A stretch of DNA of 60,938 bases, from IMG/VR virus record IMGVR_UViG_3300025577_000002; one strand, written 5' to 3'. The notes below the pieces were generated by a model, which made no database searches, was not told the origin of the DNA, and saw only the letters and a list, made by a program, of their open reading frames with translations. The position numbers were made by a program, and so were the translations under genes. The DNA is from a virus. Shown piece by piece: positions 21,001-54,498 of this stretch; position 1 is the first letter of the stretch; each line of letters starts with the position of its first letter.

Positions 21001-24000
21001 CAGATCGATCTTGAAGATCAGGAAGACCTACGTGCCAACCTCGACGAACTCGCCCTTGACGAGCTAACTAGGATCTTTGAGAAGAAGATAACTCGTAATG
21101 CCGTAGTAGCTATGGATGCTCCAATGCACCCCCGTGCTCGGGTTATGCTAGGTACTGGCAATCTTAAAGGTGCCTTAGAGGCTATCGCGGGAACTACGCC
21201 GAACACTAAACTGTCTACAGCAGCTAGTAAATTGGCTGGTGTTGCTGGTGATACGAAGGTAGAGGTCGTCGAAGACTTGCAGGATGCGCAGGGTAACCCC
21301 GTCGCAGGCTTATTTGACCCCGAGACTAACACTGTCAAGCTAGATAGTGTTACAGGAACAAATACTCACGTAGTGCTTCATGAAGTAACGCACGCTGCGG
21401 TATCGGCCACACTAGCTAACCCAAGCCACCCGGTGACTAAACAGCTAACTAAGCTGTTTAACGACGTGAAAGATATGCTTGACAGTGCGTATGGTGCGCA
21501 AGACGTAGATGAGTTTGTATCTGAAGCGTTCAGTAACCCGGAGTTCCAAAAGAAGTTAGCTACGATGAACCCGAATGGCGAAGAGATCTCCGCGCTGCAA
21601 CGGTTCTTTAACTCTGTCGGTAACTTCCTACGTAAGATAGTCGGTATCCCACCTAAAGAGGTTGATACCGCTTTGACCGAAGCAGATCGGTTTATAGAAG
21701 CTATCCTTGCACCGGCACCGGACTCGCGTAACGCGGGGGAACTACTCATGAACTCCACACGTTCCGGTGTTAAGCAGAAGATGGAGGCTATTGGAGCCAT
21801 ACAGAAAGACCTAGCTCTACCACTAACTGATAAGTTTAGGGGTGAGTGGGCCGACGGTTCTGCACAGTGGTTGCGTAATGCAGCTGACGGTGTTCGTTCG
21901 TTACTACCAAAACTTACAGGTTCCCTAGCCCTTGCGGATATTGCAAAAGCTGTGGGCCTTAAAGATCTTGGTCTCCGCCTGCATGTATCGTTCGAAAACC
22001 AGCGCGGCGCTATGAGCCAGTCTGACGATCGAGTACACCAGAAAGTTAAGATAGTCGATAAGTGGGCTAGCAAGGCTGGTGTGGAAGGGCAGAAAACCCT
22101 GAACGACTTAATATATAGTGAAGAGTACGGCGCGACGATTTACCAAGTAGATCCTACGCTGACTACCGCACAGGCCCGTAAGAAATACGAAGGTGAGACC
22201 TCTGAGAGCGGTGAGAACCTCCTCACGATATGGAAAGCGCAGCGGAAAGACTGGAATGCCTTAGGTTCCGAAGGTCAGAACGCCTACACAACCATGCGCG
22301 ACATGTACCGATCACAGTACAACGAGTTGCGAGATGTTATCTACGGACGTATTGACGCCGCTATGAAGGAAAGCCCTGAAGCGGCAGCTACACTGAAGAA
22401 AGAAGTGTACGCTAAGTTGTTTGAGTCTGGCTCCCTAGATGTCTACTTCCCGTTAATGCGTGAGGGTAAATACTCCTTATCGTTTAGCTATAAAGCCGAC
22501 CGCGCTAAAAGCGAGAAAGACCAATTTGTCTTACAGATGTTCGATAACTACCGCGAACGTGACCGTGCAGCCGAGATGCTTCAAGAAGACGCAGATGTAG
22601 ATCAGAGCACTATCACTACCAAAGACGGTGCACTAGAGATACAAGACTACGCCAATGTACCGGCTACATCGTTTGTTGGGGAGACACTGAAGACGCTTAA
22701 AGCTAACAAAGTAGATCCTACGGTACAAGCAGAAATCATGCGCTTGTTCATCGAAGCACTGCCTGAATCGTCCTTCGCTAAGTCACTGCAAAAGCGTAAA
22801 GGAACTCCGGGGTATATGACCGATGCTATATACGCCATGAGAACCAAGGGGTACGACCTAGGCCGTCAGATTGAGCGTATGCGATATGGCGCAATAATCG
22901 GTGGTATCGAAGACGAGATTAAAGAAGCATTGCCACCGGCTGGCGGCGGTCAGGGTAAGGGGATTAAACCCGCATTCGACACCGTACGCAGCGAACTCTT
23001 GATACGGGGTAAGTTTGCACGCCAAGGGGCCGCGTCTAAAGGTATAGAAAAATACGTCCGTACCGTTAACCAGTTAGCGTTCGTAGCCACTATCGGGGCC
23101 AACGCTGCTTCTGCGGCAGTTAACTTATCGCAGATCCCCCTGTTTGTATATCCTTACTTGGGTGCTAAGTACGGTTACAAGGCGACTGCTGTTGCAATTA
23201 AAGAAGCCACCGCTATCGTTACGGGATCTAAGATCGGCACTGATGCAGGGTCTCGCGCAGGTAAAGCGCTTGACAAGGTGACCTTAGCTTTTGGTATCGA
23301 CGCATACTACGACACTAAAGACGGTGACTACTCAGTACGTACGGACTTGGGACTCGATGCCGGGCTAGTCAAACGCCTAGAAACCATCGCGCCTCTGGTC
23401 AAAGTAGCTTCTGAACGAGGGCAACTGTCCCGTTCATACATACTGGACGCCCTCGGCCTTGAAGAAGGTGGCCGAGAAGCGCGGGGTAATAAGCTGCAAC
23501 GAGCGTTAGACACGGGAACTGGTATCTCCGCAATGATGTTTAACCAAGCGGAGCGTTTTAACCGTCAGGTTACCTTGATCACAACCTATAACTTAGCGCT
23601 GGGTAAGATAGCCAAAGACAACCCTAACATGCCCCGTAACAAACAAAAGGACTTGGCAGCGCAACAAGCCATGATCGAGACCCAAGAAACAAACGGTGGT
23701 TCTGTACTCGAAACAGCCCCACGAGTTGCACAAGAAAACGTCTTACGTGTTGCTTCGATGTACAAAACGTACGGTATGCAGATGTACTACACCATGCTGA
23801 AAACCGCTCGGGTAGCGCTAGATACTGTTGCCAAAGAGAAAAAGTTTACTCCTGAAGAACGTTCTATAGCACTTCGGCAGCTCGCCGGATTACACGGAAC
23901 AGCACTATTCTTCTCAGGTATACACGGTATCCCCTTATATGGTGCAGTGCAGCTACTCGCGGATCTACTCTTGTTCGATGATGAAGACGATAAGTTCGAC

Positions 24001-24735
24001 GAGATAGTGCGTAAATCTGTCGGGCAGGGTTGGTACAAAGGCGCGTTCACGGAGCTAACGGGTATAAACATCGCCGATCGAGTACGTCTAACTGGACTAC
24101 TTATCCAACAAAATCGGTACAACAACGACCCGTCCGCTGAAGAGTCTATCGGGTACTACCTTGGTGGCCCTGCACTCAGTGTCGGCAAGCGGTTCGGTCG
24201 TGGCGTGAAAGACGTACTTGATGGGGAGATTCAGCGCGGTATAGAGAGTATGCTCCCTGCGGGTATCTCGAATATGTATAAGGCGTCACCAGTAATGGGG
24301 CGTTACCAGCAAGATGGTGGTATATACACTCGGCGCGGTGACCCTATATATGACGATATAACCGGGGGCGAATTGTTCACACAGTTCCTCGGATTCGCTC
24401 CTACAGAGTACTCGCGCAACCAAGAGATTAACCAGCGTGACAAGCGTGTAGAAGGCGCAGTGCTGAAACGCCGTAGTGGGATACTAAGAAAGTACTACGT
24501 CGCTATGCGTGCAGGTGATTTGGCGGGTGTGAACGAAGTTCGGGAGGAGATGGATGATTTTAACAGGGACCACCCATATGCGCGTATAGATAGGAAGACT
24601 GTTAAGAAGTCGCTCAAGTCACACAAAAATACGTCTGCGAAGATGTACAACGGTGTAACTATCAGCCCACTAATGAAGTACGCTATAGAGCAGAGCCGCT
24701 TAGAATACGACGAGGGGTTCAACTTATTTAACTAG
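18028..24735 (+). CDS. giant virion/internal protein with HExxH zincin motif, 2235 aa
   Basis: 6.7-kb ORF that is the last gene of the late arm. It has an Ala/Gly-rich hydrophobic N-terminal region and a Lys/Pro/Val-rich 28-aa tandem repeat. The HExxH motif is TNTHVVLHEVTHAAV (nt 21379-21393), with EFVSEAFSNPEF about 50 aa downstream. The C-terminal region contains ..GGPALSVGKRFGRG.., which is reminiscent of what I recall as PLxRFG-type large phage proteins. Confidence 0.7.
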   Translation: MASIEQLFTALNNADAAGDVVAAREIADAIRAMQGGTARDVEMPPMASVRERDPSESGFFENIATGFGAGAVGMGEAASLGAAALLEEESELAVREKIKATADYLRPEGGDPDSIAYKLASGIGSIAGIAAPAAAAAFAAPASAVTAAGLGVAGALGVGAGAGEASERARAAGATEEERGSATLRGAAIGSLDVLPIGRIIKIPGVTDLMEKLGGDAVGLINRFRKMAVTGTAEGVQEASTAILQNLNERGYNAEAELVNAGVVEEGAIGAGSGAILQGLVDLFVKGKSAKAVDPTAGEPPLLEDAPEFDQPTLEEGQVQGELFGARAAPSTVEEGTDYGSSLTDFAEDQISGAVAKLESDGVDPTTITEDMVFDTIVETPELRSATIRDDRTPDMFGIGGMEATEQLQKMEQQELTDAEIAAVAESLRADEAAVADLAAMRGESVEETKAADAKRVELAERAAPRAAALEAVIAEPTTGSYVNLERKFAKELDSRNIASGERAKPTKAESDRIRRAADAFAGTRPKEKAPKAPQQTIQAAPEDTQLDELESQIPEAVKKEQVPSQLSFPGMGKRKTSPVKKGAPEQAAQEQVAPKAVTKEFMDTLGIAPRAPIRQRVEGKDLNDVGVRDQFVAFANNQKVPEQTRLNIARELEGTPEAQLELFQPTPRGKKQPEQPESQPSRSGLSPIVPAMEFERLEPLTRDDTGRISAPTQKGLATARQRPAKAVSGAVETQPTLASPTPAVEPVVAKKEPVAKKEPVVAKKEPEKAPVAEPVVAKKEPVAKKEPVVAKKEPEKAPVAEPVVAKKEPVAKKEPAAPRTVSKQRDERFAAQPAEVRRTATEVSKEYSNIIGEDITTPNDGTKVFKLLDDGVAARDKEGNAAVTYLSKVERTIDGLYLAIFDVANQTKQFRQTPDMPQGEIEFYNGMGNKPAQLTLAWAKKNLSKETNAWIDTTLEKELRNVQRIENTDYIELFRAREAKIAAREAAEQAQIDLEDQEDLRANLDELALDELTRIFEKKITRNAVVAMDAPMHPRARVMLGTGNLKGALEAIAGTTPNTKLSTAASKLAGVAGDTKVEVVEDLQDAQGNPVAGLFDPETNTVKLDSVTGTNTHVVLHEVTHAAVSATLANPSHPVTKQLTKLFNDVKDMLDSAYGAQDVDEFVSEAFSNPEFQKKLATMNPNGEEISALQRFFNSVGNFLRKIVGIPPKEVDTALTEADRFIEAILAPAPDSRNAGELLMNSTRSGVKQKMEAIGAIQKDLALPLTDKFRGEWADGSAQWLRNAADGVRSLLPKLTGSLALADIAKAVGLKDLGLRLHVSFENQRGAMSQSDDRVHQKVKIVDKWASKAGVEGQKTLNDLIYSEEYGATIYQVDPTLTTAQARKKYEGETSESGENLLTIWKAQRKDWNALGSEGQNAYTTMRDMYRSQYNELRDVIYGRIDAAMKESPEAAATLKKEVYAKLFESGSLDVYFPLMREGKYSLSFSYKADRAKSEKDQFVLQMFDNYRERDRAAEMLQEDADVDQSTITTKDGALEIQDYANVPATSFVGETLKTLKANKVDPTVQAEIMRLFIEALPESSFAKSLQKRKGTPGYMTDAIYAMRTKGYDLGRQIERMRYGAIIGGIEDEIKEALPPAGGGQGKGIKPAFDTVRSELLIRGKFARQGAASKGIEKYVRTVNQLAFVATIGANAASAAVNLSQIPLFVYPYLGAKYGYKATAVAIKEATAIVTGSKIGTDAGSRAGKALDKVTLAFGIDAYYDTKDGDYSVRTDLGLDAGLVKRLETIAPLVKVASERGQLSRSYILDALGLEEGGREARGNKLQRALDTGTGISAMMFNQAERFNRQVTLITTYNLALGKIAKDNPNMPRNKQKDLAAQQAMIETQETNGGSVLETAPRVAQENVLRVASMYKTYGMQMYYTMLKTARVALDTVAKEKKFTPEERSIALRQLAGLHGTALFFSGIHGIPLYGAVQLLADLLLFDDEDDKFDEIVRKSVGQGWYKGAFTELTGINIADRVRLTGLLIQQNRYNNDPSAEESIGYYLGGPALSVGKRFGRGVKDVLDGEIQRGIESMLPAGISNMYKASPVMGRYQQDGGIYTRRGDPIYDDITGGELFTQFLGFAPTEYSRNQEINQRDKRVEGAVLKRRSGILRKYYVAMRAGDLAGVNEVREEMDDFNRDHPYARIDRKTVKKSLKSHKNTSAKMYNGVTISPLMKYAIEQSRLEYDEGFNLFN
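20263..20474 (+). repeat. perfect 84-bp tandem repeat, 2.5 copies (EPVVAKKEPVAKKEPVVAKKEPEKAPVA)
   Basis: Copy 1 is 20263-20346 and copy 2 is 20347-20430; the two are identical. A partial copy runs 20431-20474. Confidence 0.9.
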
Positions 24736-24780: not shown

Positions 24781-26010
24781 CTACACGGTATACACTGTAC
24801 GCCTTGTTTGTGCAGTAGTCCCCGGCTCGTGCCCGCCTAGACAATCTTGTATCTCCTCACGCGTTACTGTACGCCGTCCTACCTCACCATAAGTTTTAGA
24901 CCGATCAACTACTGTTAGAAACGACCGACTCCTCCAACCATGCTCGTGAGCATACGCGTCAGCACCGGCCATCTGATTCCACGATTCTACGACGCAATTG
25001 CCGAGTTCTTTGGCAACACTTTTGTGGTGTATGTGACCAATGTCGATGTAGTGATAGATAGTCTCGCCATGATCCTGCGCGTAGTCAGTCGCCATAACGT
25101 CGGCTAATTTAGCGGGTTTGCACTTGTCGCTGTGATGCACCATGACGAAGGTGTTTCCCATACGGTAAGGTATGAACACGTTACTGTTCTCAAGTATCGT
25201 GATGCGTGGGTTATTCTCGTACAGCATAGACAGCCACATCTGGCTCATGTGATCTAGCACGCGGCTGTGGTTGCCTTGGTTAATGATCACGTCGACGTAT
25301 TTGAATTTCTGTGCACACCGCTCAATGATGTACCGGTATATTCTCCCGTAAACATGCGCCATACGGTATAGCCTACCATCTGTGTCGAGGACGTGGCCGC
25401 TGTGTGCCGTCGTACCGCTCATGTTGTCGTAGTGTGCAAAATCCCCGAGGTCATTAATAACACATCGTTCGCAAGCGGGGGTACGTGTTACCAAGCGGTC
25501 TATCGCTAGGCACAGTTCCTTTTCGGCTATCTCCAGATTGAAGTCTTGGCCTACTTCGGCGGCGTAAGCGATCATGCCAATGTGTGCGTCACCGATTTGG
25601 AACCACGGAACTATGTCCGTGTCTAAGCCGTCTTCGACGTATTCTTGTTGAACTAGCTCGGGAAGGGGTTCGAGAAAGGCCGTTATAGCAGCTTTGACAA
25701 CATCGATGTCGCGGTCCAGTTCGGTCTTGGCCCAGTATTGAAAGACCTGTCCATCCTTGACTTGTATGGTGGCCTTCGTTGCTGTCATGCCTTTAGGCAT
25801 GGGTACGTTCAGTCCGATGTCTGGGTGGTAGAACCGAGCGTGGGCTTTCTTTTTCAGGTTATGGAGGTGTTCGTTTATGGTTGTTTTGCTGAGCCCCAGT
25901 TCTGTCGCTATGGCCCGTTCAGATAGATGCTTGCGCTTCAATCGCAGAACTTCACCTTGCCTGCTGGTCAGTTCCATGTCGTCGAATATCTCGTTGCTCC
26001 AGTCCCACAT
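24781..26010 (-). CDS. HTH (LuxR/sigma70 region 4-like) fused to calcineurin-like metallophosphoesterase, 409 aa
   Basis: N-terminus is ..LTSRQGEVLRLKRKHLSERAIATELGLSKTTINEHLHNLKKK... The five metallophosphoesterase motifs occur in order: GDAHIG, LGDFAHYD, GNHSR, HHSD, GHIHH. Confidence 0.75.
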   Translation of the reverse strand: MWDWSNEIFDDMELTSRQGEVLRLKRKHLSERAIATELGLSKTTINEHLHNLKKKAHARFYHPDIGLNVPMPKGMTATKATIQVKDGQVFQYWAKTELDRDIDVVKAAITAFLEPLPELVQQEYVEDGLDTDIVPWFQIGDAHIGMIAYAAEVGQDFNLEIAEKELCLAIDRLVTRTPACERCVINDLGDFAHYDNMSGTTAHSGHVLDTDGRLYRMAHVYGRIYRYIIERCAQKFKYVDVIINQGNHSRVLDHMSQMWLSMLYENNPRITILENSNVFIPYRMGNTFVMVHHSDKCKPAKLADVMATDYAQDHGETIYHYIDIGHIHHKSVAKELGNCVVESWNQMAGADAYAHEHGWRSRSFLTVVDRSKTYGEVGRRTVTREEIQDCLGGHEPGTTAQTRRTVYTV

Positions 26011-32544: not shown

Positions 32545-32561
32545 GTTAGTGTGACACTAAC
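32545..32561 (-). repeat. 17-bp palindromic motif GTTAGTG-N3-CACTAAC, copy 1
   Basis: Plus strand reads GTTAGTGtgaCACTAAC. The TAG stop of the 89-aa gene lies inside the arm. It is 28 nt upstream of the SNF2 ATG. Confidence 0.9.
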
Positions 32562-36569: not shown

Positions 36570-36784
36570 TTCGTTTCCTCGATATATTCATCTGAATTAT
36601 GATAGCAATCTTCACAAATAGGCCCTGTATCATCATTTAAATAGATTGAATCCTCTTCGCATCGGCCAGTTTCCGCGCTGCATTGGTAGCATAGCTGTAG
36701 CGTACCGGGGTAATTATGTTGATTCCACTCTTTATGATCACTTTGAGACATTGCGTGCTTGTGTCCATCTGGCCATGTATTCAT
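36566..36784 (-). CDS. Cys-rich mini-protein (72 aa)
   Basis: ..[13 protein letters not shown]...PICEDCYH.. pattern. It overlaps its neighbours by 4 nt. Confidence 0.45.
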
Positions 36785-37323
36785 TTCGTTTCCTCGAATC
36801 CGGTTGGCTCTGCCGGTGACAGTTCAATTACTGATTTAATAAAGTCCTTGTATTTACGCCAGAATTTAATCGCTACTTTGCCATCCCTTTCTAATATGAA
36901 GGTGTCACTAAAATCCCACCATTCTGCTATTTCGCGACGTTGGCAGCCAATTTGCAGGATATTACTGGTGTATGTGATCGGGTAGGTGCTTGATACAAAT
37001 AAAGATTTTATGTGTTTTCGGTTCCCTGCGCAGCCATTAAGACAGGCATCGCTCAAGTTGGCACCGCTCAAGTCGGCACCGCTCAAGTTGGCTTGGCTCA
37101 AGTTGGCATCGCTCAAGTTGGCATCGCTCAAGTTAGCACCGCTCAAGTTAGAACCGTGCAAGTTAGAACCGCTCAAGTTAGCACCGCGCAAGTCGGCACC
37201 GCTCAAGTCATAACCGCGCAAGTTAGAACCGCTCAAGTTGGCATGGACGCCGCTTTTACCTTTATGCAGCCACAAGTCATGCAGCTCTAATATGGTTTTT
37301 AGTTGCTCTGTTGTGTAGTTCAT
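36781..37323 (-). CDS. pentapeptide-repeat protein (180 aa)
   Basis: About 16 consecutive A(N/D)LSx pentapeptides: [79 protein letters not shown] upstream. The C-terminal 75 aa are unrelated. Confidence 0.85.
37046..37243. repeat. 15-bp tandem DNA repeat (~13 units) encoding the pentapeptide repeats
   Basis: Plus-strand units such as caccgctcaagttgg / caccgctcaagtcgg are repeated head to tail. Confidence 0.85.
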
Positions 37324-38887: not shown

Positions 38888-38904
38888 GTTAGTGCGTCAC
38901 TAAC
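38888..38904 (-). repeat. 17-bp palindromic motif, copy 2
   Basis: Plus strand reads GTTAGTGcgtCACTAAC. It is 1 nt after the TAA of the 38906 gene and 53 nt upstream of ATG 38834. Confidence 0.9.
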
Positions 38905-38905
38905 A

Positions 38906-39331
38906 TTATCTATAAACCCAATAGACGTTGACGTCTATCCTACGTCCGATACCCACAATGTCTATTGTGGGGGGCACTGCACTGGTCAGCATTAGTACTG
39001 CTAACTTCTCCTGTACCCACAAAGGCAACGCATCTACCGAAGGATATGTAGCATCCAGCGGAGTGTCAAGCTTATCTATACCTAAACATATCACACCGAC
39101 AGGTTTCGTACCCTCCAGTACGATAACGCGGTATATGTTATCATCCTGTATAGATCCACCGTTATCACCTACCCAGTACCACTCAGTGTCGGTGCTAGTG
39201 GATGCAAAAGGATTCTTCACCGTGAGATACCTCGGGTTAAACTTAATCGATTCCTGCCACTTCTGCGCCCTAACCGTTTCCGAACCCACAGCTAGCGAAC
39301 GTAGCTTACCAACATACTTAATCCACCACAT
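38906..39331 (-). CDS. hypothetical protein (141 aa)
   Basis: The track ORF begins at a GTG (39346). The first in-frame ATG is 39331 (MWWIKYVGKL..). Confidence 0.45.
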   Translation of the reverse strand: MWWIKYVGKLRSLAVGSETVRAQKWQESIKFNPRYLTVKNPFASTSTDTEWYWVGDNGGSIQDDNIYRVIVLEGTKPVGVICLGIDKLDTPLDATYPSVDALPLWVQEKLAVLMLTSAVPPTIDIVGIGRRIDVNVYWVYR

Positions 39332-40214
39332 AGAACATGCCTTCACCGGCGCGGTACCCTACACCATCGACGTACTCGCCATCGGCTAACATGTTAAGAA
39401 CAGATAGTTTACCCATGATGTGATCCGGTAGGTTGTCTGCTTCGTAGCGATCTACTGTGTTAGATGTCGATGTATACGCGGATGTCGCATTGCCGATATA
39501 TACAGTCTCAAACTTCTGAGCACCCATGCACTCATAAACACGAACGAACCACATCGGTACCTCGCGACCAGACAGCGCACTACTATTATCCTTTAGCTCG
39601 AAGTACTTCGCTAAGTCTGCACTGAACGCTGGGCTTAGAAACGTATGTCCAGCTTTTACCAGATGTCGTAGCTCTGTAAGTAGTGGGCTGTCAGGTGTAT
39701 AGGATGATATGTTAAACATCGTCTCTACGGACGCTCGTAAGTCCTGCCGAGCTGTATGCGCCACGCTAGTAACCTTACTCACTACGTCTGAAAAGGTTAC
39801 CTTCAACATATCTTGTGGGCTGTAAGGTCGCATGTACCGCTTAATGTGGCGCAGTGCGGTGGCGCAGCTACCCGTCGTCTTCGTATAGTAAGCGGCGTTA
39901 TAGTCAGAGTACCGGTTGTTCGCTATATTCGGGCTACTGATGGTGTACTCAGTACTCCACCTGCCGGTGCCGTATTCCCTTGTCTCGGGTTTCTGCCCAG
40001 CGGATACCCAACCTACGCAGTACGGGTTACCCTCTATATACATATACAGTGAGGCACGATCCCGCATTATAAACTGCATACCCCGGACACTTGAGGCGAT
40101 GTTACTCTTTAGTATCTTAATAGACTCTGATTGATCGGCATCTGCCCAACCGGATGTAATTCGTTTCTCTTCTGTTAGTGCTTCACTAACAAGTTTATGT
40201 CTGAAAGTAATCAT
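39318..40214 (-). CDS. hypothetical protein (298 aa), downstream partner of the MoxR/VWA pair
   Basis: TAATG overlap with the VWA gene and an AGGAGA RBS. No recognisable motif. Confidence 0.55.
   Translation of the reverse strand: MITFRHKLVSEALTEEKRITSGWADADQSESIKILKSNIASSVRGMQFIMRDRASLYMYIEGNPYCVGWVSAGQKPETREYGTGRWSTEYTISSPNIANNRYSDYNAAYYTKTTGSCATALRHIKRYMRPYSPQDMLKVTFSDVVSKVTSVAHTARQDLRASVETMFNISSYTPDSPLLTELRHLVKAGHTFLSPAFSADLAKYFELKDNSSALSGREVPMWFVRVYECMGAQKFETVYIGNATSAYTSTSNTVDRYEADNLPDHIMGKLSVLNMLADGEYVDGVGYRAGEGMFYVVD
40174..40190 (-). repeat. 17-bp palindromic motif, copy 3 (intragenic, codons 9-14)
   Basis: Plus strand reads GTTAGTGcttCACTAAC. It encodes V-S-E-A-L-T and lies 24 nt after the VWA gene stop. 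Confidence 0.9.
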
Positions 40215-41392
40215 TACATATCTCCTGAATTAATGTTTACCGTTACGCCTACGTCTGGGTTGGCACGTTTATTGTCTAAGATGCACCATAGTACGGGGCA
40301 TGACCAGTTACCCCATGTACCCCCAAGGTATCCATCTGTCAATACTATGGCGGCTTGTGGCTTGACGCCGTGCTCGGTCAGGTACGCTGGGATACATTCC
40401 ACATTCGTGCCACCACCACCTGCTGGCTTAGTAGTGTTGATGAGATCATCGAGTTCGTGCATCAAATATTTCTCATCCTGACAAACCGCGCTGTCCCAGT
40501 ACAATAAACGTACAGCTTCAGGGTGTACGGTGTCACATATACTCTTCACTTCGGATAGGAAGTGGCTAAGCTCGGTATGTCCAATAGATCCTGATGTGTC
40601 GATGGCGATAACCAGCTCACCCACACTCTCACTAACACCTGATGGCATGTAGTAACCACCTGCAACATACCTTCTGTTAGGACGTTGCCATGTAGAGTAG
40701 TCATTACCTGCACACGTTGTCGATATAAAGTCGCGCAGTACCTCACGCCAATCTATCTGGGGCTGGAGTAGTTCGGCTAAGTCACGATCACCCCCAGTGC
40801 CCAGCTTACCGGCGATCAACGCACCCTGACGTATCGCCTCATCTATATCTCGTGCCAGCTCCCGCTGTTCTTCCTGAGTAAGCTCTTTCGCTCCATCCCA
40901 GTCGTGCTCATCCATACCCCCGGCACCTTCACCGTTGTCGCCATCTTCCTTGAGCATGCTGTATACCTTCGCGCTGTCCATGCCCCGGTACTTCGGATCG
41001 TAGCAGCCGCCTTCGGGTAACGTCGCCCAGCCATCTCGGTTGTCATCTAAAAGCTTACAGTTGATAACGAAGTCACACGCTACATTCGCTAGCTGTGGGT
41101 TCTCGTCGTACAGGTGCCGCCATGTAGTGAGGTGCCGGTAGAGTTTGTGGTAACACTCGTGCAGTACTAGGAACCGTAGCTCTGGGTCGTTAAGTGTGTC
41201 GATGAAGTCACGTCCGTACTTCTCATCACGCCCATTAGTACAGGCTGTCGGGACATCATCGTCTATGCTGCGATCCCCGATCATAAGTACACCCGCTAGG
41301 GCTACGTACTTCGGACTGCCCATAATATCCACTACTGCTTTGGATAACCGTTGTTCTTGTGTAAGTTGTTTTCCGATAGATAACATACTCAT
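40214..41392 (-). CDS. VWA-domain protein with N-terminal HExxH metallopeptidase-like domain (392 aa)
   Basis: The HExxH motif ..FLVLHECYHKLYRH.. is at nt 41147-41161. The MIDAS motif is ..VIAIDTSGSIG... This architecture is typical of partners of MoxR-type AAA+ ATPases (CobT-like). Confidence 0.75.
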   Translation of the reverse strand: MSMLSIGKQLTQEQRLSKAVVDIMGSPKYVALAGVLMIGDRSIDDDVPTACTNGRDEKYGRDFIDTLNDPELRFLVLHECYHKLYRHLTTWRHLYDENPQLANVACDFVINCKLLDDNRDGWATLPEGGCYDPKYRGMDSAKVYSMLKEDGDNGEGAGGMDEHDWDGAKELTQEEQRELARDIDEAIRQGALIAGKLGTGGDRDLAELLQPQIDWREVLRDFISTTCAGNDYSTWQRPNRRYVAGGYYMPSGVSESVGELVIAIDTSGSIGHTELSHFLSEVKSICDTVHPEAVRLLYWDSAVCQDEKYLMHELDDLINTTKPAGGGGTNVECIPAYLTEHGVKPQAAIVLTDGYLGGTWGNWSCPVLWCILDNKRANPDVGVTVNINSGDM

Positions 41393-41398
41393 TCTCCT

Positions 41399-41415
41399 GT
41401 TAGTGACGCACTAAC
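41399..41415 (-). repeat. 17-bp palindromic motif, copy 4
   Basis: Plus strand reads GTTAGTGacgCACTAAC. It is wedged exactly between the TAG of the AAA+ gene and the AGGAGA SD of the VWA gene. Confidence 0.9.
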
Positions 41416-42515
41416 TATTTCTTGTCTGCTGCGAACATGTAGTTGTTGTTCATGGCCCACTGTGTGAACTTTTTATTGGTCATGATCAGCTGCTGCTTGG
41501 CATACTTCGGGGTACGGACACCGTTAGCAAACATACCCTGCGCTTCCTTGTCCAGTCGTGGCATGTAGTCCATCCACGCATCTACCCAATCTTTGTCGAG
41601 ACTTGCTAGGCTGCGGTATACAACCATACATACCGCAGAGGCAGAGTCAGGCACCTTAGCGTTAAGCGGATCCTGCTTGATACTTTCGAGTGACGGTAAC
41701 TGATCGGCCAGCTTGACGAACGCCATCAGATCCATCGCGCCTCGGTCACCAATAGTACCCATGAGTAAACCTGTTAGTGTCTGGTCATCGAACTGTTCGC
41801 GAGTCTTGAGCCAGTCGGACGCCGCCTCTAGTGACCGAGGTGTAACAAACGCTGGACGCTGCTGCTTGGGATGATAGATGTACGGGTTATCATCTGGGTT
41901 CTTGATATCTTCGAAGCCATGAAACAGGTGTGGGTTATCCTTGCACCAGCCCAGTAGTGTGTGATCGATGCCGTTGTTGATACCCCACTCGATCCATTCC
42001 ATGTGGTCAGGCTTACGGGCCGTAATAACAGTCATCCGGTTACGGGCATGGGGTGGTAACAAGTCACCGACACCTTCGGCACCGAGGTTGGTCGTCGCAA
42101 ACACAACGCTGTCCTCGTGTAACTCATACGATCCTATCTTACGTTCGAGCATCAGTCGCAGCATGGCATTCTTGACGGCGGGGTTCGCCTTGCCGTACTC
42201 GTCAATCATCAGGATGATCGGCTTGTCGAGGTGTGCACCTAACTCCTCGTTGGTGGCGTACGATACATAGTCTGTACCCGCTTCTTCTGACATGGTGGCA
42301 AGTTTCGGTATTGATATGTCACCGAGATCCTTAGTCGTGCAGTCGAAGTAACACGGGGTGTGAGTCGGTAGCTCACCTGCTAACATCTTGAGTAGCGAGG
42401 ACTTGCCGGTACCCATGTGGCCTTGGATCAGTACGGTACGCTTGGTACCACCTGCTTTGATAGCTGACATGATCTGGTCAAGACCGAGGGCGTACATCTG
42501 GGCTGCATTGTTCAT
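41415..42515 (-). CDS. MoxR/CobS-like AAA+ ATPase (366 aa)
   Basis: Walker A is ..IQGHMGTGKSSL.., Walker B is ..IILMIDEYGKA.. and sensor-1 is ..VFATTNLG... The start is taken as ATG 42515 (MNNAAQMYAL..) because of its AGGAGA RBS and ATGA overlap with the upstream gene; the track ORF extends to 42566. Confidence 0.8.
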   Translation of the reverse strand: MNNAAQMYALGLDQIMSAIKAGGTKRTVLIQGHMGTGKSSLLKMLAGELPTHTPCYFDCTTKDLGDISIPKLATMSEEAGTDYVSYATNEELGAHLDKPIILMIDEYGKANPAVKNAMLRLMLERKIGSYELHEDSVVFATTNLGAEGVGDLLPPHARNRMTVITARKPDHMEWIEWGINNGIDHTLLGWCKDNPHLFHGFEDIKNPDDNPYIYHPKQQRPAFVTPRSLEAASDWLKTREQFDDQTLTGLLMGTIGDRGAMDLMAFVKLADQLPSLESIKQDPLNAKVPDSASAVCMVVYRSLASLDKDWVDAWMDYMPRLDKEAQGMFANGVRTPKYAKQQLIMTNKKFTQWAMNNNYMFAADKK

Positions 42516-42531
42516 AGTAGTTCTCCTAGTG
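42508..42531 (-). repeat. 24-nt duplicated translation-initiation region, copy 1
   Basis: The plus-strand sequence ttgttcatagtagttctcctagtg is identical to 42690-42713. On the minus strand it reads CACTAGGAGAACTACTATGAACAA. Confidence 0.9.
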
Positions 42532-42697
42532 AGTCGGTGTAAGTAAATCCGCTGTTGGTGTCGCATCCGATCTTGTATGCCTGTTGAATACTGATGTTGC
42601 GCTGGTGCAGATCTGCAATCTGCTCGTCAGTCAGTGGGCATCCAGCGAATCCGTACTTGGCAAACTCTTGCTGTAGTGCTTCGCGGTACTTGTTCAT
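42512..42697 (-). CDS. hypothetical protein (61 aa)
   Basis: Track ORF with an AGGAGA RBS. Its last six codons are the duplicated TIR of the AAA+ gene. Confidence 0.5.
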   Translation of the reverse strand: MNKYREALQQEFAKYGFAGCPLTDEQIADLHQRNISIQQAYKIGCDTNSGFTYTDSLGELL

Positions 42698-42713
42698 AGT
42701 AGTTCTCCTAGTG
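42690..42713 (-). repeat. 24-nt duplicated translation-initiation region, copy 2
   Basis: Identical to 42508-42531. It abuts 17-bp motif copy 5. Confidence 0.9.
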
Positions 42714-42729
42714 TTAGTGACTCACTAAC
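42713..42729 (-). repeat. 17-bp palindromic motif, copy 5
   Basis: Plus strand reads GTTAGTGactCACTAAC. It is 3 nt after a TAA stop and 15 nt upstream of ATG 42697. Confidence 0.9.
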
Positions 42730-42732
42730 TTA

Positions 42733-43008
42733 TTATTGGGTGGTTGTAAACTTCATCTTAGCTAAGGACTCGTCGAGTGGTACACCAGCGTGCATCGCTA
42801 TGTGGTTGTATACCTTCACACCTTCCAGCTCTGCCATACGCTCGACCTGTTTCTTGACTAGCCAATACGGTGACGCAGGTACTATCTCCACAATGTCAGG
42901 GTACAGGTACCCAGCTGGTTGGTAGGCGTCGTCGTCCATATAAACACCCGCTGCTCGTGCTAGACCGTTACCTGCGTCGTATATCTCGATTGATCGTAAT
43001 GTAATCAT
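42733..43008 (-). CDS. hypothetical protein (91 aa)
   Basis: Track ORF with a GAGGGGA RBS. Confidence 0.5.
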   Translation of the reverse strand: MITLRSIEIYDAGNGLARAAGVYMDDDAYQPAGYLYPDIVEIVPASPYWLVKKQVERMAELEGVKVYNHIAMHAGVPLDESLAKMKFTTTQ

Positions 43009-43029
43009 ATTATTCCCCTCAGAATAGTT

Positions 43030-43046
43030 GTTAGTGTGTCACTAAC
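43030..43046 (-). repeat. 17-bp palindromic motif, copy 6
   Basis: Plus strand reads GTTAGTGtgtCACTAAC. It sits immediately after the TAA of the 311-aa gene and 21 nt upstream of ATG 43008. Confidence 0.9.
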
Positions 43047-43982
43047 TTACATGTCAAGTGATGGTAGTGCTTTGATAACGTCATCTACCACACGTTTCGT
43101 TTCGGCGCGGAGATACCCATCCTCCCGTAATGCATCTGGTGTAATCCCCCGCAGTGTGTTTTCTAGCTTCAGACGCAATGCCGACATCTGTGAATCGTTG
43201 GTGATATTGCACACGTCTAGCAGATCTACTATGTCGAGCACATTAGACACCAGCGTGTCTCGAAAGATCTTCTTCTGTCCGCTGTCACCATAGTCGAGCC
43301 GTTCGGACATTGCTGTTAGTGCCTTGAATGCACGTTGCCACACATCCTGCATCGCACTGTGTAACTGGGCCTCGTAATACGCTTGGTAGTGGTCTTTGAC
43401 CTGCTGATTCCCCTCGTTACCAACATCGACGCGAAAGTCACCTGCTTCTGGCAGTGGGATGTATGAGAACCGGAACTTAAACTTCTGCGCAATGCTGGCC
43501 GCTTCGGGGTACTCCTCACGGGAGAACAGGTTACCTAAGTTGGCCTGCGCTTGACTGATCTCCCAGTCATAAGCATCAATAAACTGTGCTACAAGACGTT
43601 CGTACTCGTTCTGCACCTCTGTCATGGTCTGGTGATACTTGAAATACGCCGCAGTTGGCAGAAGACGCATTCCGGTATCAGACCATGGCATAGTCATAGA
43701 GTAGTGTAGGTTACGGACATTAGCAGTGAACTTCTGCACTGCATCTAGCTCTGCGCAGTTGCCCAGTAGCTTTTTGTTGACGTTGGCCACACCTGCTGCT
43801 GCATAGTTCTGTGAGGTGATGTCCTTTGACGCCCGCTTGTCTAACTTACGCGCTGTCCATGTAGAGATACTTAACTCTACCAACATCGATGAAGATGCGA
43901 TGGATGGTGCTGTTGGGGCTTGTGGTGCTTTGTTAGTTGTTAGTGGCTCACTAACATTGTGTTGCTGCGTTGTATGGTTCAT
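43047..43982 (-). CDS. DUF3150-like protein (311 aa), first gene of early operon
   Basis: GGAG RBS lies 9 nt upstream of ATG 43982. The sequence (..MLVELSISTWTARKLDKRASKD.., ..FRFSYIPLPEAGDFRVD..) resembles what I recall of DUF3150, a family that co-occurs with CobS/CobT-like pairs. This rests on memory, not a search. Confidence 0.45.
   Translation of the reverse strand: MNHTTQQHNVSEPLTTNKAPQAPTAPSIASSSMLVELSISTWTARKLDKRASKDITSQNYAAAGVANVNKKLLGNCAELDAVQKFTANVRNLHYSMTMPWSDTGMRLLPTAAYFKYHQTMTEVQNEYERLVAQFIDAYDWEISQAQANLGNLFSREEYPEAASIAQKFKFRFSYIPLPEAGDFRVDVGNEGNQQVKDHYQAYYEAQLHSAMQDVWQRAFKALTAMSERLDYGDSGQKKIFRDTLVSNVLDIVDLLDVCNITNDSQMSALRLKLENTLRGITPDALREDGYLRAETKRVVDDVIKALPSLDM
43939..43955 (-). 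repeat. 17-bp palindromic motif, copy 7 (intragenic, codons 10-15)
   Basis: Plus strand reads GTTAGTGgctCACTAAC. It encodes V-S-E-P-L-T. An extra GTTAGTT half-site is adjacent. Confidence 0.9.
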
Positions 43983-44071
43983 AACAGTGTACTCCAGTTG
44001 GTTTAAGGCTCAGTGGGGCGCGAGGGGCGGTGTCTGACTAACTAACTGTGAGAACCCCCACCGAGATACAT

Positions 44072-44100
44072 ATTATGACACAAGTAGCGAAGAATGTCAA
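44072..44100 (-). promoter_or_regulatory. near-consensus sigma70 promoter (early, leftward)
   Basis: On the minus strand: TTGACA (44100-44095), 17-nt spacer, CATAAT (44077-44072), with TG at the extended -10 position. It lies about 85 nt upstream of ATG 43982. Confidence 0.6.
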
Positions 44101-44256
44101 AGGATGCCAAAACGTGTCGAGTTGTGTAATGTTCTTGTGTTTAGTGTATTGTTCTTACAGTGAAGTGACCTAAGTCATTGATTTATAAGTACTGTTCGAA
44201 TGTTCGCTTTTGCGCAGATAGGAGAGACCTGCTGAGAGGGGGTCCGAAGACGCAAG

Positions 44257-44460
44257 AAAACGTACAGTCATTTCGAGCGGCAAAAAGGTTGGGAGCCAAT
44301 TTCGTGGAAAACGTACTTTATATATTAATATTAAGAATAAGTATATATAGATAAACCTCGATACTTTGACGCTGGTATGTTTCGTCGGTGCTTACTAGTG
44401 CCTACAACAAAATGTCACGAAACTACATTGTACGTTTAGGGCCTTTAAAAAACGTACAAT
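44257..44460. promoter_or_regulatory. iteron-like AAACGTAC repeats flanking an AT-rich block (candidate replication origin or operator region)
   Basis: aaaacgtaca is at 44257-44266 and aaaacgtact is at 44308-44317. An 11-bp inverted pair attgtacgttt (44427-44437) / aaacgtacaat (44450-44460) follows. An A/T-rich stretch occupies about 44317-44354 (ttatatattaatattaagaataagtatatatagataaa). Confidence 0.3.
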
Positions 44461-44547
44461 ACAAGAACATTACCCCCCTTTTTCGTACAGTACACGCGGC
44501 ACTAAGGCTAGAACGCGAACATTACAAATATGGCTGTTTTGCGTTGG

Positions 44548-44575
44548 CGCAACGCGACCCGAGGAACTGGTATCA
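44548..44575. repeat. 28-bp perfect direct repeat, copy 1
   Basis: cgcaacgcgacccgaggaactggtatca is identical to 44679-44706. Confidence 0.9.
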
Positions 44576-44603
44576 CGACGTAAGAATCCTCCGCCATAGC
44601 TTT

Positions 44604-44620
44604 GTTAGTGACGCACTAAC
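44604..44620 (-). repeat. 17-bp palindromic motif, copy 8 (non-coding)
   Basis: Plus strand reads GTTAGTGacgCACTAAC. It lies midway between the two 28-bp direct repeats. Confidence 0.9.
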
Positions 44621-44678
44621 AAGTCCTAGTGTGTTATATCGAGGTGGCATGTATAGACAACCAATTGTTATCGGCTCA

Positions 44679-44706
44679 CGCAACGCGACCCGAGGAACTG
44701 GTATCA
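44679..44706. repeat. 28-bp perfect direct repeat, copy 2
   Basis: Identical to 44548-44575, with 131-bp periodicity. Confidence 0.9.
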
Positions 44707-44727
44707 ATGCCCGATAAAATCGAGGCG

Positions 44728-44750
44728 AAAAAAAACCCGCCGAAGCGGGT
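44728..44750 (-). terminator. rho-independent terminator (minus strand) after lipoprotein gene
   Basis: On the minus strand: ACCCGC-UUCG-GCGGGU followed by U8 (plus-strand A-run 44728-44735). The stem abuts the TAA stop. Confidence 0.85.
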
Positions 44751-44908
44751 TACATGGCATCCCAGATCATAGCTGGGGTGATGCAGGAGCTGTACTCGGT
44801 CCAGTGCTCTTCGTCCCACGACTGGCAACCGGTTATTGCGTTGATCATGATGAAACCTAGTAAGAAGCCTAGTAAGAAGCCTAGTAATGCTGTGCTGATA
44901 TGTTTCAT
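44750..44908 (-). CDS. small lipoprotein (52 aa precursor)
   Basis: Not in the track. AAGGAA RBS upstream. Translation is MKHISTALLGFLLGFLLGFIMINAITGCQSWDEEHWTEYSSCITPAMIWDAM. It has a signal peptide and lipobox-like AITG|C, giving a mature peptide of about 25 aa. The h-region is encoded by a 12-bp tandem repeat (44856-44887). Confidence 0.6.
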   Translation of the reverse strand: MKHISTALLGFLLGFLLGFIMINAITGCQSWDEEHWTEYSSCITPAMIWDAM

Positions 44909-44952: not shown

Positions 44953-45462
44953 TTATAGTAGTTTGATCGCGGCCAGTACTTGCTGGCGCATCTTAATGAC
45001 GTCAAACTTTGGTTCTTCTAAACTGGCGCACACTTTCAAGATATCGTTCAATGAATCCCGGATGCGCTGGTCTGGTGTCCGTGTTCGACTGGTGCTGCCT
45101 TCAATTTCCTTCTTAGTGCGCTTCTCTAATGCGCTTTTGAAGTCATTGCGTTTGGCGCCAATTTGTTGCTGAGCGTATCGCTTGCTTGCCTTCTGGCTAT
45201 CGGACAAGCTCTTAGTGTTCTTTATCAGTAGCGCTTGTGTAGGAGCGGGAAACCCCTTTATGATCGCGGCATTGATACTATCGAACAACTCCTCACTCGC
45301 CGTGCTCTTAGTGTCCTTCGTCTTGGGTGATATAAAGTCAGTCGACTTAAACCCCTCTGCGATTAAGGTGTCGATCGCCGATACCATTGACTTGTCTGCC
45401 TTAGAAGATGCTGATACGGCGGCAGTGATACGGGTTGCGGTTGCAGTGTTTAGCTTATTCAT
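44953..45462 (-). CDS. hypothetical early protein (169 aa)
   Basis: It is the first ORF downstream of the 45520-45548 promoter, with a GAGAG RBS. It is S/T/K-rich with no recognisable motif. Confidence 0.55.
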   Translation of the reverse strand: MNKLNTATATRITAAVSASSKADKSMVSAIDTLIAEGFKSTDFISPKTKDTKSTASEELFDSINAAIIKGFPAPTQALLIKNTKSLSDSQKASKRYAQQQIGAKRNDFKSALEKRTKKEIEGSTSRTRTPDQRIRDSLNDILKVCASLEEPKFDVIKMRQQVLAAIKLL

Positions 45463-45591: not shown

Positions 45592-45608
45592 GTTAGTGGC
45601 GCACTAAC
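45592..45608 (-). repeat. 17-bp palindromic motif, copy 9 (divergent intergenic region)
   Basis: Plus strand reads GTTAGTGgcgCACTAAC. It is about 45 nt upstream of the -35 of the leftward promoter and is flanked by two ctaaccggc repeats. Confidence 0.9.
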
Positions 45609-54220: not shown

Positions 54221-54288
54221 GTGTTATAAACTACCTATCCCTGACAGTTGCCTAACGCAGCTGACACTAGCCACGACAGGAGATTCTC

Positions 54289-54498
54289 ATGGCTTTATCT
54301 ACTTTTTCTGGACCAGTCCGTTCAAATAACGGCTTCCAAATCCCCGTTGTTACGACTGCCAACTTACCGGCATTTGCTGACACCGCAATCGGAACCGCTT
54401 ATATGGTTAGCGATAACGGCGCAGGCAACGACGAATATTGCATCGTAATTAATACTGGCGCTGCTTGGGTTACCGCCATTGGTGCCGCTCTTAGCTAA
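54289..54498 (+). CDS. hypothetical virion-module protein (69 aa)
   Basis: AGGAGA RBS upstream. Track ORF. Confidence 0.5.
   Translation: MALSTFSGPVRSNNGFQIPVVTTANLPAFADTAIGTAYMVSDNGAGNDEYCIVINTGAAWVTAIGAALS

Follow-up and report, generated by a model that had tools for sequence, protein, structure and literature searches.

A DUF3150, AAA+ ATPase and peptidase-VWA triad at the head of a putative early operon of a marine phage is shared by phages and conjugative plasmids

Here we describe a leftward operon at positions 38,906 to 44,100 of IMG/VR virus record IMGVR_UViG_3300025577_000002, a stretch of 60,938 nucleotides (hereafter the window) that resembles the complete genome of an uncultured marine phage. 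The core of this operon is a triad formed by a DUF3150-family protein, an AAA+ ATPase and a protein that joins a peptidase domain to a VWA domain. What is new is that this triad is conserved and common to phages and conjugative plasmids, and that a conserved early promoter accompanies it in the clade of the window. Its components belong to known, uncharacterised families, and our literature search found no description of the triad or of its function, DUF3150 and DUF2201 being mentioned only in passing. Taken together, our analysis suggests that the core is probably a three-protein accessory module of mobile genetic elements, likely devoted to protein remodelling and cutting.

For the clade comparison we employed 80 related IMG/VR loci, and presence was counted only over loci with enough downstream sequence. 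Since none of 50,697 phage records was matched when the 5.2-kb region was searched by megablast, every comparison was done at the protein level. Bacterial context was taken from PLSDB plasmids only; a scan of genome contigs with the VWA protein found no relative. An earlier sequence-only reading of the window had listed seven open reading frames (ORFs) in the region together with a promoter and several motifs, and all of these were found where it had placed them. Its calls of a DUF3150-like protein, a MoxR-type AAA+ ATPase and a VWA protein with an HExxH motif and a metal-ion-dependent adhesion site (MIDAS) are backed by Pfam and PHROG profiles.

All genes of the operon lie on the minus strand. 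The DUF3150-family protein of 311 amino acids (aa; 43047..43982) comes first and is followed, beyond two small ORFs, by the ATPase (366 aa, 41415..42515) and the peptidase-VWA protein (392 aa, 40214..41392). The DUF3150 gene has a GGAG Shine-Dalgarno sequence 9 nt ahead of its ATG at 43982. A downstream start at M33, which would leave a hairpin in the leader, was rejected, as it lacks a Shine-Dalgarno sequence. The longest ORF for the ATPase spans 42566-41415 (383 aa); the true start is the ATG at 42515 (MNNAAQ..., 366 aa), which has the same Shine-Dalgarno context, 'ACTAGGAGAACTACTATG', as the 61-aa ORF ahead of it, and gene callers on related contigs likewise give 366 aa. Coupling of the genes by ATGA and TAATG overlaps, as read before, holds for the 61-aa ORF and ATPase genes (ATGA) and for the VWA and 298-aa genes (TAATG), whereas the last two genes of the operon, encoding proteins of 298 and 141 aa, instead share 14 nt.

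The 311-aa protein, the third conserved component of the triad, matched DUF3150 (Pfam PF11348) at an E-value of 3.6e-5 and with 23.6 bits, just below the gathering cut-off of 24.9. Among 42 diverse homologues, 22 matched DUF3150 at E <1e-3, the best at 2.4e-8, and the family comprises 7000 cluster representatives at E 1e-3 or better. Moreover, homologues in cyanophage MinM2 and a Cupriavidus plasmid, which are annotated as DUF3150 at NCBI, scored 1e-62 to 1e-85 with the family's own profile. Judging from these matches, the protein is best treated as a divergent branch of DUF3150. Its AlphaFold2 (AF2) model has a predicted local distance difference test score (pLDDT) of 69 and a mixed alpha/beta appearance, with a disordered stretch of 30 residues at the start, a small sheet and long helices. 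Foldseek of this model against the PDB returned nothing at E <0.001, only generic helical bundles, and the DUF3150 profile likewise yielded only helical-bundle noise in the PDB.

The ATPase matched phrog_1297 at 1.5e-48 and, in Pfam, AAA at 2.5e-6 (28.4 bits) and AAA_5 at 6e-4 (20.2 bits against a cut-off of 22); AAA_5 was matched by seven of ten members of its family. The motifs GHMGTGKS and ILMIDEYG can be read directly in the sequence. Across phage and plasmid homologues, the Walker A residues G32-G35-G37-K38, Walker B D105, sensor 1 N143, arginine finger R160 and sensor 2 P226-R227 are invariant, suggesting that the protein is an apparently active AAA+ motor. The top PDB match of the family profile was to midasin AAA domains at 1e-37, while none of the canonical MoxR, RavA or CbbQ chains was among its top 60 PDB matches. 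When single proteins were searched against PDB sequences, the ATPase found only a generic Hsp104 P-loop and the VWA and DUF3150 proteins found nothing. The ATPase thus appears to sit in the MoxR/AAA_5/midasin clade in the broad sense. It is only in this sense that the earlier label 'CobS-like' stands; CobS_N gave no match.

The 392-aa protein gave the strongest family assignments, with matches to DUF2201_N (PF13203; 2.8e-27, 96.5 bits against a cut-off of 23.2), to DUF2201 (PF09967; 5e-15, 56.1 bits against 26.4) and, over its full length, to phrog_1314 (5.6e-84). Both signature motifs are directly legible, LHECYH in the N-terminal part (HECYH being nt 41161-41147) and AIDTSGSIG in the C-terminal VWA domain. 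An alignment with homologous proteins of two plasmids, a cyanophage and one phage each of the N4-like and V5-like kinds shows the zinc site H78-E79-x-x-H82 with H87 and the full MIDAS (D265-x-S267-G-S269, T329 and D353) to be invariant. A profile search of the PDB gave weak matches to M48/minigluzincin peptidases and to the integrin I-domain. The protein therefore resembles an M48/minigluzincin-like zincin, apparently active as a peptidase, fused to a VWA domain with a complete MIDAS. The N4 gp24 (ATPase) and gp25 (vWFA) families, to which the ATPase and the peptidase-VWA protein belong, correspond to phrog_1297 and phrog_1314 (PMC2784036).

Within the clade the triad is strictly kept. The ATPase gene follows the DUF3150 gene in 68 of 68 related loci (median identity 79%), and the VWA gene adjoins the ATPase gene in all 59 loci (median identity 66%). 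Outside the clade, cyanophage MinM2 encodes all three proteins (DUF3150 2e-34, VWA 2e-34, ATPase 4e-12). A comparison of gene neighbourhoods across phages and conjugative elements, as the sequence-only reading had proposed, found the triad in both. In PLSDB the DUF3150-like protein matches 62 records, mostly from Burkholderiales and about half of them conjugative. Four of five plasmids inspected encode an 'ATP-binding protein', a DUF3150 protein and a 'VWA-like domain-containing protein' together, contiguously or nearly so in three, and the proteins were confirmed as homologous by profiles built from the families of the window proteins. These plasmid triads adjoin PRTRC, methyltransferase, addiction-toxin or type IV secretion system genes. 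VWA and DUF3150 matches have identical genus counts on Burkholderiales plasmids, and wherever a plasmid record is listed in both match tables (10 records), the two genes adjoin each other. In addition, the ATPase/VWA pair occurs with no detectable DUF3150 in hundreds of phages, often beside replication genes; these include Schitoviridae, Vequintavirinae, some jumbo phages and Rhizobium phage RHph_TM27A. By tblastn, the ATPase and VWA families matched 576 and 667 phage records, respectively.

A different arrangement was seen on a Candidatus Manganitrophus plasmid (CP114559.1, 3854-6876), where the DUF3150 gene follows DUF1257 and DUF2997 genes and that of a different AAA ATPase of 480 aa, and where the neighbourhood lacks a DUF2201 VWA gene. 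More than one kind of ATPase module may thus have DUF3150 as a partner.

The operon is headed by a sigma70-type promoter at 44072..44100 on the minus strand, TTGACA-17-(TG)CATAAT, which matches the consensus at 11 of 12 positions, carries an extended -10 element and is predicted to drive the operon. It had been called the strongest promoter and is indeed the best sigma70-like site in the window: 44100-44072 is the sole site with at least 10 of 12 positions and TG in the whole 60.9 kb, and the other 11/12 promoter-like site falls inside structural genes. Most of 75 related contigs have an equivalent box, TTGACA-17-TG-n-(T/G/C)ATAAT, about 55-130 nt 5' of their DUF3150 gene, even though the proteins of these contigs are only 61-84% identical. 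Retention of the box across such diverged contigs is far beyond chance and thus good evidence for a real promoter of the host RNA polymerase. The conserved promoter and the promoter-proximal place of the triad support early transcription by this polymerase, as judged from sequence only. The first proposal that the operon is the earliest needs qualification: a separate unit with genes for a 169-aa and a 52-aa protein lies upstream on the same strand.

Judging from gene content, the triad is accessory within this head/terminase lineage: all three of its proteins are absent from pelagiphage HTVC023P, and no triad gene was seen in the early region examined of phage DSL-LC04. HTVC023P has a terminase with 43% identity to that of the window and a comparable podovirus-type genome layout.

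With the composition of the module at hand, we considered what it might do. Our leading reading of its purpose, which we put forward tentatively, is that soon after DNA entry a host protein is disabled or processed by the machine; this protein would probably be a target relevant to defence or takeover. In this model the ATPase hexamer would dock the VWA domain, as in NorQ/NorD, RavA/ViaA and midasin, and the MIDAS would hold an acidic residue of the client protein. ATP hydrolysis would then remodel the client, which the tethered peptidase would cut. DUF3150 could be the adaptor that selects the client, a regulator or the processed client itself. We infer this mechanism by analogy; how a MoxR and a VWA protein work together is documented for NorQD (PMC13036017, PMC9976466). 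The nearest phenotype comes from Vequintavirus Bas54, whose MoxR ATPase (bas54_0063) is reported to be dispensable on E. coli K-12 and required against the predicted defence system DS-28 (preprint 10.1101/2025.11.20.689424). Gene 0063 of its sister phage Bas58 matches the ATPase of the window (E 1e-18, 26% identity), and a 'putative metallopeptidase' of Bas58, encoded 4 kb from gene 0063, matches the VWA protein (E 7e-19). The hypothesis of a host-takeover or counter-defence role, which the sequence-only reading had drawn from the position of the operon, thereby gains modest indirect support.

Several observations weigh against an action on host defence or takeover targets. N4 gp24 and gp25 are among the 14 core genes of N4-like phages and belong to the middle transcripts, their function being unknown (PMC4193335). 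This status fits housekeeping better and, being atypical for anti-defence genes, argues against a role in anti-defence alone. In the Bas54 screen the ATPase was reported and the peptidase-VWA gene was not (preprint 10.1101/2025.11.20.689424). Furthermore, the structural model of the DUF3150 protein is of moderate confidence and offers no functional clue, and on plasmids the triad might just as well serve to defend the element that carries it.

That last idea, in which the triad would be a mobile counterpart of MoxR-vWA 'ternary' conflict systems directed against competing elements, with DUF3150 as sensor and the peptidase as effector, appears unlikely to us. Its architecture does parallel the ternary systems of Kaur et al., which comprise a MoxR ATPase, a vWA-peptidase effector and a third component as sensor (PMC7159879, PMC12839542), toxin-antitoxin and methyltransferase genes neighbour the triad on plasmids, and its accessory status and patchy distribution would also fit. 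However, no PADLOC model matched any protein of the operon, the only similarities being at the P-loop level (mad8 1.4e-4 and BrxC 3.8e-3, each over about 25-35 residues). Lytic N4-like phages have the pair among their core genes, and a module that comes first in an early operon is, for a virulent-type phage, better suited to takeover than to exclusion. Moreover, the third component is DUF3150 rather than VMAP or iSTAND; scans with Pfam, NCBIfam and PADLOC found DUF3150 alone in this protein, no VMAP- or iSTAND-specific comparison having been made. A helper of replication or establishment is possible and yet, in our view, rather doubtful. Such a machine would remodel or mature the element's own replication or nucleotide-metabolism protein, or clear DNA-bound host proteins. 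The gene neighbourhoods speak for it: the triad heads the transcription unit of dUTPase, DNA polymerase A, a PD-(D/E)XK nuclease, an SNF2 helicase and primase; the pair lies directly 5' of an AAA ATPase, a helicase and DNA polymerase in N4-like phage nACB1 and just ahead of DNA polymerase I in RHph_TM27A; and a beta-clamp-like gene sits between the ATPase and DUF3150 genes on a B. gladioli plasmid. The core status of the pair in N4-like phages would also agree with such a role. Nevertheless, HTVC023P has the same kinds of replication genes (DNA polymerase, helicase, primase) and no triad; this absence and the dispensability of the Bas54 ATPase on K-12 count against an obligatory replication role, and searches of the three core proteins with Pfam and NCBIfam revealed no DNA-binding domain.

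An assembly role in the virion, as chaperone and protease, seems improbable, even though Iyer et al. 2021 proposed it for the same domain pair in jumbo phages (PMC7824862) and the MoxR-vWA pair of Acidianus two-tailed virus, p618/p892, is required for tail assembly (cited in PMC7824862). Conjugative plasmids, which make no virions, carry the triad, and HTVC023P, with its related terminase and comparable layout, does without it; both count against assembly, and the triad sits in the early/replication unit on the strand opposite to the structural genes. Finally, a metal chelatase of the CobS/CobT kind, encoded as an auxiliary metabolic gene and serving cobalamin or some other metallocofactor, is very improbable and largely refuted by the domain tests. 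The combination of an AAA+ and a VWA protein resembles CobS/CobT, and cobS and cobT have been reported as auxiliary genes in marine phages (PMC9599517). Nonetheless, CobS_N, CobT and CobT_C found no Pfam match at E 0.01 or better in the operon proteins, the VWA protein bears an invariant HExxH peptidase domain, neither a CobN-sized partner nor a cobalamin gene lies nearby, and the plasmid modules adjoin conjugation and PRTRC genes. Membership in CobS/CobT was thus rejected on domain content. The earlier dismissal of cobalamin synthesis is reasonable in view of the missing domains, the invariant peptidase motif, the occurrence on plasmids and the neighbouring replication genes.

Sharing of a three-gene module with plasmids, together with its accessory status, thus points to a job on proteins in a newly entered cell and away from capsid building and cobalamin synthesis. 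If the target is a defence protein, the module would represent widespread enzymatic anti-defence by ATP-dependent proteolysis. The ATPase/VWA pair is universally conserved in N4-like phages and recurs in V5-like, jumbo and marine phages. N4, Bas54 with DS-28, and Burkholderia plasmids are tractable systems in which to study the module.

The early region is further marked by a 17-bp motif, GTTAGTGNNNCACTAAC, a hairpin with a 7-bp stem and a 3-nt loop, of which the window holds nine perfect copies against 0.31 expected. One copy lies inside codons 10-15 of the DUF3150 gene (43939..43955), a place that is syntenic in most relatives, and another directly 3' of its stop codon (43030..43046). Further copies stand between the 91-aa and 61-aa ORFs (42713..42729), across the ATPase stop codon and 6 nt before the VWA Shine-Dalgarno sequence and start (41399..41415), inside codons 9-14 of the 298-aa gene (40174..40190), where the peptide 'LVSxALT' is kept in the family consensus, and just after the 141-aa gene (38888..38904). 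The remaining three are found just 5' of the promoter of the 169-aa gene (45592..45608) and at 32545-32561 and 44604-44620. Six copies had been read as separating the genes of the operon: five do lie within 38906-44100 and one abuts it, but two of these are inside coding 5' ends and not between genes. Whichever way the motif is oriented, two of its three reading frames contain stop codons, and it is therefore confined to junctions or, in one frame only, to 5' coding ends, where it reads V-S-x-A/P-L-T. In 78 of 80 related loci we observed a dominant perfect palindrome with a 7-bp stem and at least three copies at syntenic places; its loops have 3-5 nt, and 3 or 4 nt in nearly all. The stem is GTTAGTG in 60 loci, and GTTAGGG, GGTAGTC, TGTAGTG, TTTACGG, TTTACGC, GTTATAA or GTTATAC in others (eight stems in all). 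Within one genome every copy switches stem in concert, which implies a genome-encoded, sequence-specific reader. The motif could act either as a DNA operator or as an RNA hairpin. N4-type virion-RNA-polymerase promoters were also considered and seem less likely, as neither giant protein of the window shows an RNA polymerase domain and a conserved sigma70 promoter heads the operon.

The leading candidate for a reader or regulator of the hairpins is the K/R-rich 169-aa protein (44953..45462, minus strand) of the upstream unit, which has no family match, its own promoter at 45548-45520 (10/12) and a hairpin copy upstream. Compared at matched DUF3150 divergence, 23 of 23 loci with the GTTAGTG stem retain a homologue (mean identity 47%), against 6 of 13 loci with other stems (24-42% identity); a positional analogue of 160-216 aa is present in all eight other-stem loci inspected. 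This comparison is suggestive, shared ancestry being a confounder. A bolder version of our reading, possible but doubtful, unites these elements as a 'counter-ternary system': a MIDAS-targeted, ATP-driven protease with DUF3150 as specificity subunit would be expressed first on entry by phages and plasmids and destroy a host immune or takeover protein. The whole early region would then stand under a genome-specific 169-aa regulator reading the co-evolving hairpins at most gene junctions.

The same upstream unit ends with a 52-aa ORF (44750-44908, minus strand), apparently for a small lipoprotein with a signal-peptide-like N-terminus and a lipobox-like 'ITGC', and with a strong intrinsic terminator at 44751-44734. 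Between this terminator and the operon promoter lies a non-coding stretch of 650 nt (44100-44750). Within it, the two units of a 41-nt direct repeat (44535-44575 and 44666-44706) are 85% identical and 131 nt apart; one hairpin copy and, near 44311-44342, a palindrome rich in AT are also present. The stretch could serve as an origin or in regulation, or it could give rise to a small RNA.

The operon also encodes proteins outside the triad. The 298-aa protein (39318..40214) and the 141-aa protein (38906..39331, from the ATG at 39331; 146 aa if the GTG at 39346 is the start) are clade-specific, with homologues in 35 of 35 and 33 of 33 related loci at median identities of 33% and 49%, respectively. 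The fast-evolving 298-aa protein has just 81 homologues. Its AF2 model is confident (pLDDT 88; predicted template modelling score, pTM, 0.80), and Foldseek against the PDB gave no match at E <0.001, the best template modelling (TM) score being <0.2; in a viral structure library it matched only uncharacterised proteins of uncultured phages. The model thus suggests a fold that may be undescribed. For the 141-aa protein, Pfam, PHROG, NCBIfam and PADLOC gave no family match, and the NCBIfam scan of the operon proteins as a whole gave nothing informative. Both fast-evolving proteins may act at the host interface as partners specific to the lineage. Variable genes are frequently inserted between the VWA and 298-aa genes of related loci. 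The 91-aa (42733..43008) and 61-aa (42512..42697) ORFs, whose family searches gave no match, had been counted as members of the module. They are not conserved, occurring in 3 of 74 and 3 of 72 related loci, and, as they are confined to near-identical genomes, we regard them as recent, strain-specific inserts outside the conserved module.

Proteins of the window recur on contigs of about 58-61 kb from JGI, ENA and Tara marine metagenomes. Judged by its terminase large subunit, the window is closest, among cultured phages, to the pelagiphages HTVC027P and HTVC023P (43-46% identity), with phage DSL-LC04 and the MinM2/Pag-Yong1 cyanophages (40%) as further relatives. The plus strand carries the structural genes, and the minus strand carries a leftward unit from about 44.1 kb to 24.8 kb. 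This unit starts with the operon described here and continues, in this order, with small ORFs and genes for dUTPase, a pentapeptide-repeat protein and DNA polymerase A, followed by a PD-(D/E)XK nuclease, an SNF2 helicase, primase and a protein with a GerE/LuxR-type helix-turn-helix (HTH). The pentapeptide-repeat protein has 180 aa (36781-37323, minus strand; Pfam Pentapeptide, 1e-25); proteins of this kind (Qnr/MfpA-like) can be DNA mimics. The HTH protein, the final gene of the unit (24781-26010, minus strand; 409 aa), carries its HTH at the N-terminus (5e-7; also sigma70 region 4-like) and may regulate late genes or, instead of the 169-aa protein, read the palindromes. On the plus strand, a giant protein of 2235 aa (18028-24735) carries LPD39 ('large polyvalent protein-associated domain'), and its C-terminal part resembles phage proteins of 2900-4650 aa, including a PHROG annotated as DarB-like antirestriction. 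A second giant protein of 2143 aa (8251-14682, plus strand) matched zero Pfam or PHROG families. Just 3' of the major capsid gene, the Rfam Mu-gpT-DE RNA motif was found (54239-54291, plus strand; 69.7 bits against a gathering score of 49).

Compared with known systems, the early region of MinM2, Pag-Yong1 and Pra-JY27 comes from phages of the same genome size class, with a terminase that is 40% identical, and its three core proteins are homologous to those of the window. The order in MinM2, MoxR, a small gene, DUF3150, three small genes and VWA, is unlike that of the window, and neither of the two genes that follow encodes a relative of the 298-aa or the 141-aa protein, which have no homologues in this phage. 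The Burkholderiales plasmid triads (Cupriavidus basilensis pRK1-1 and B. gladioli bgla_4p) comprise all three families in similar sizes and contiguously, with scores of 1e-62 to 1e-102 or better in the profiles of the window families at about 21-31% identity. However, they are arranged as ATPase-DUF3150-VWA instead of DUF3150-ATPase-VWA and have neither homologues of the 298-aa and 141-aa proteins nor the hairpin motif. The pairs of Schitoviridae (N4 gp24/gp25), Vequintavirinae and jumbo phages belong to the same protein families, with the same peptidase-VWA fusion and conserved residues, and they usually lie near replication genes and are expressed before late genes, as is proposed for the module of the window. 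They share only about 22-33% identity with the window proteins and lack the two extra clade-specific genes, and N4-like and V5-like phages have no DUF3150 gene in the regions examined; moreover, Bas58 gp0063 and gp0055 are about 4 kb apart on opposite strands, unlike the adjacent genes of the window.

The ternary systems of Kaur, Burroughs, Iyer and Aravind 2020 follow the same three-component logic, and their effector is sometimes a metallopeptidase. They are chromosomal, occur in multicellular-type bacteria and use VMAP or iSTAND as third component, whereas the window module uses DUF3150 and is found in phages and plasmids. The cellular pairs NorQ/NorD, CbbQ/CbbO, RavA/ViaA and CobS/CobT combine, as in the window, an AAA_5/MoxR-clade ATPase with a MIDAS VWA protein and provide a mechanistic template. 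The module of the window differs from them in that its VWA domain is fused to an apparently active zincin peptidase, that DUF3150 joins as a partner, and that it is borne by mobile elements and unlinked to a respiratory or cofactor pathway.

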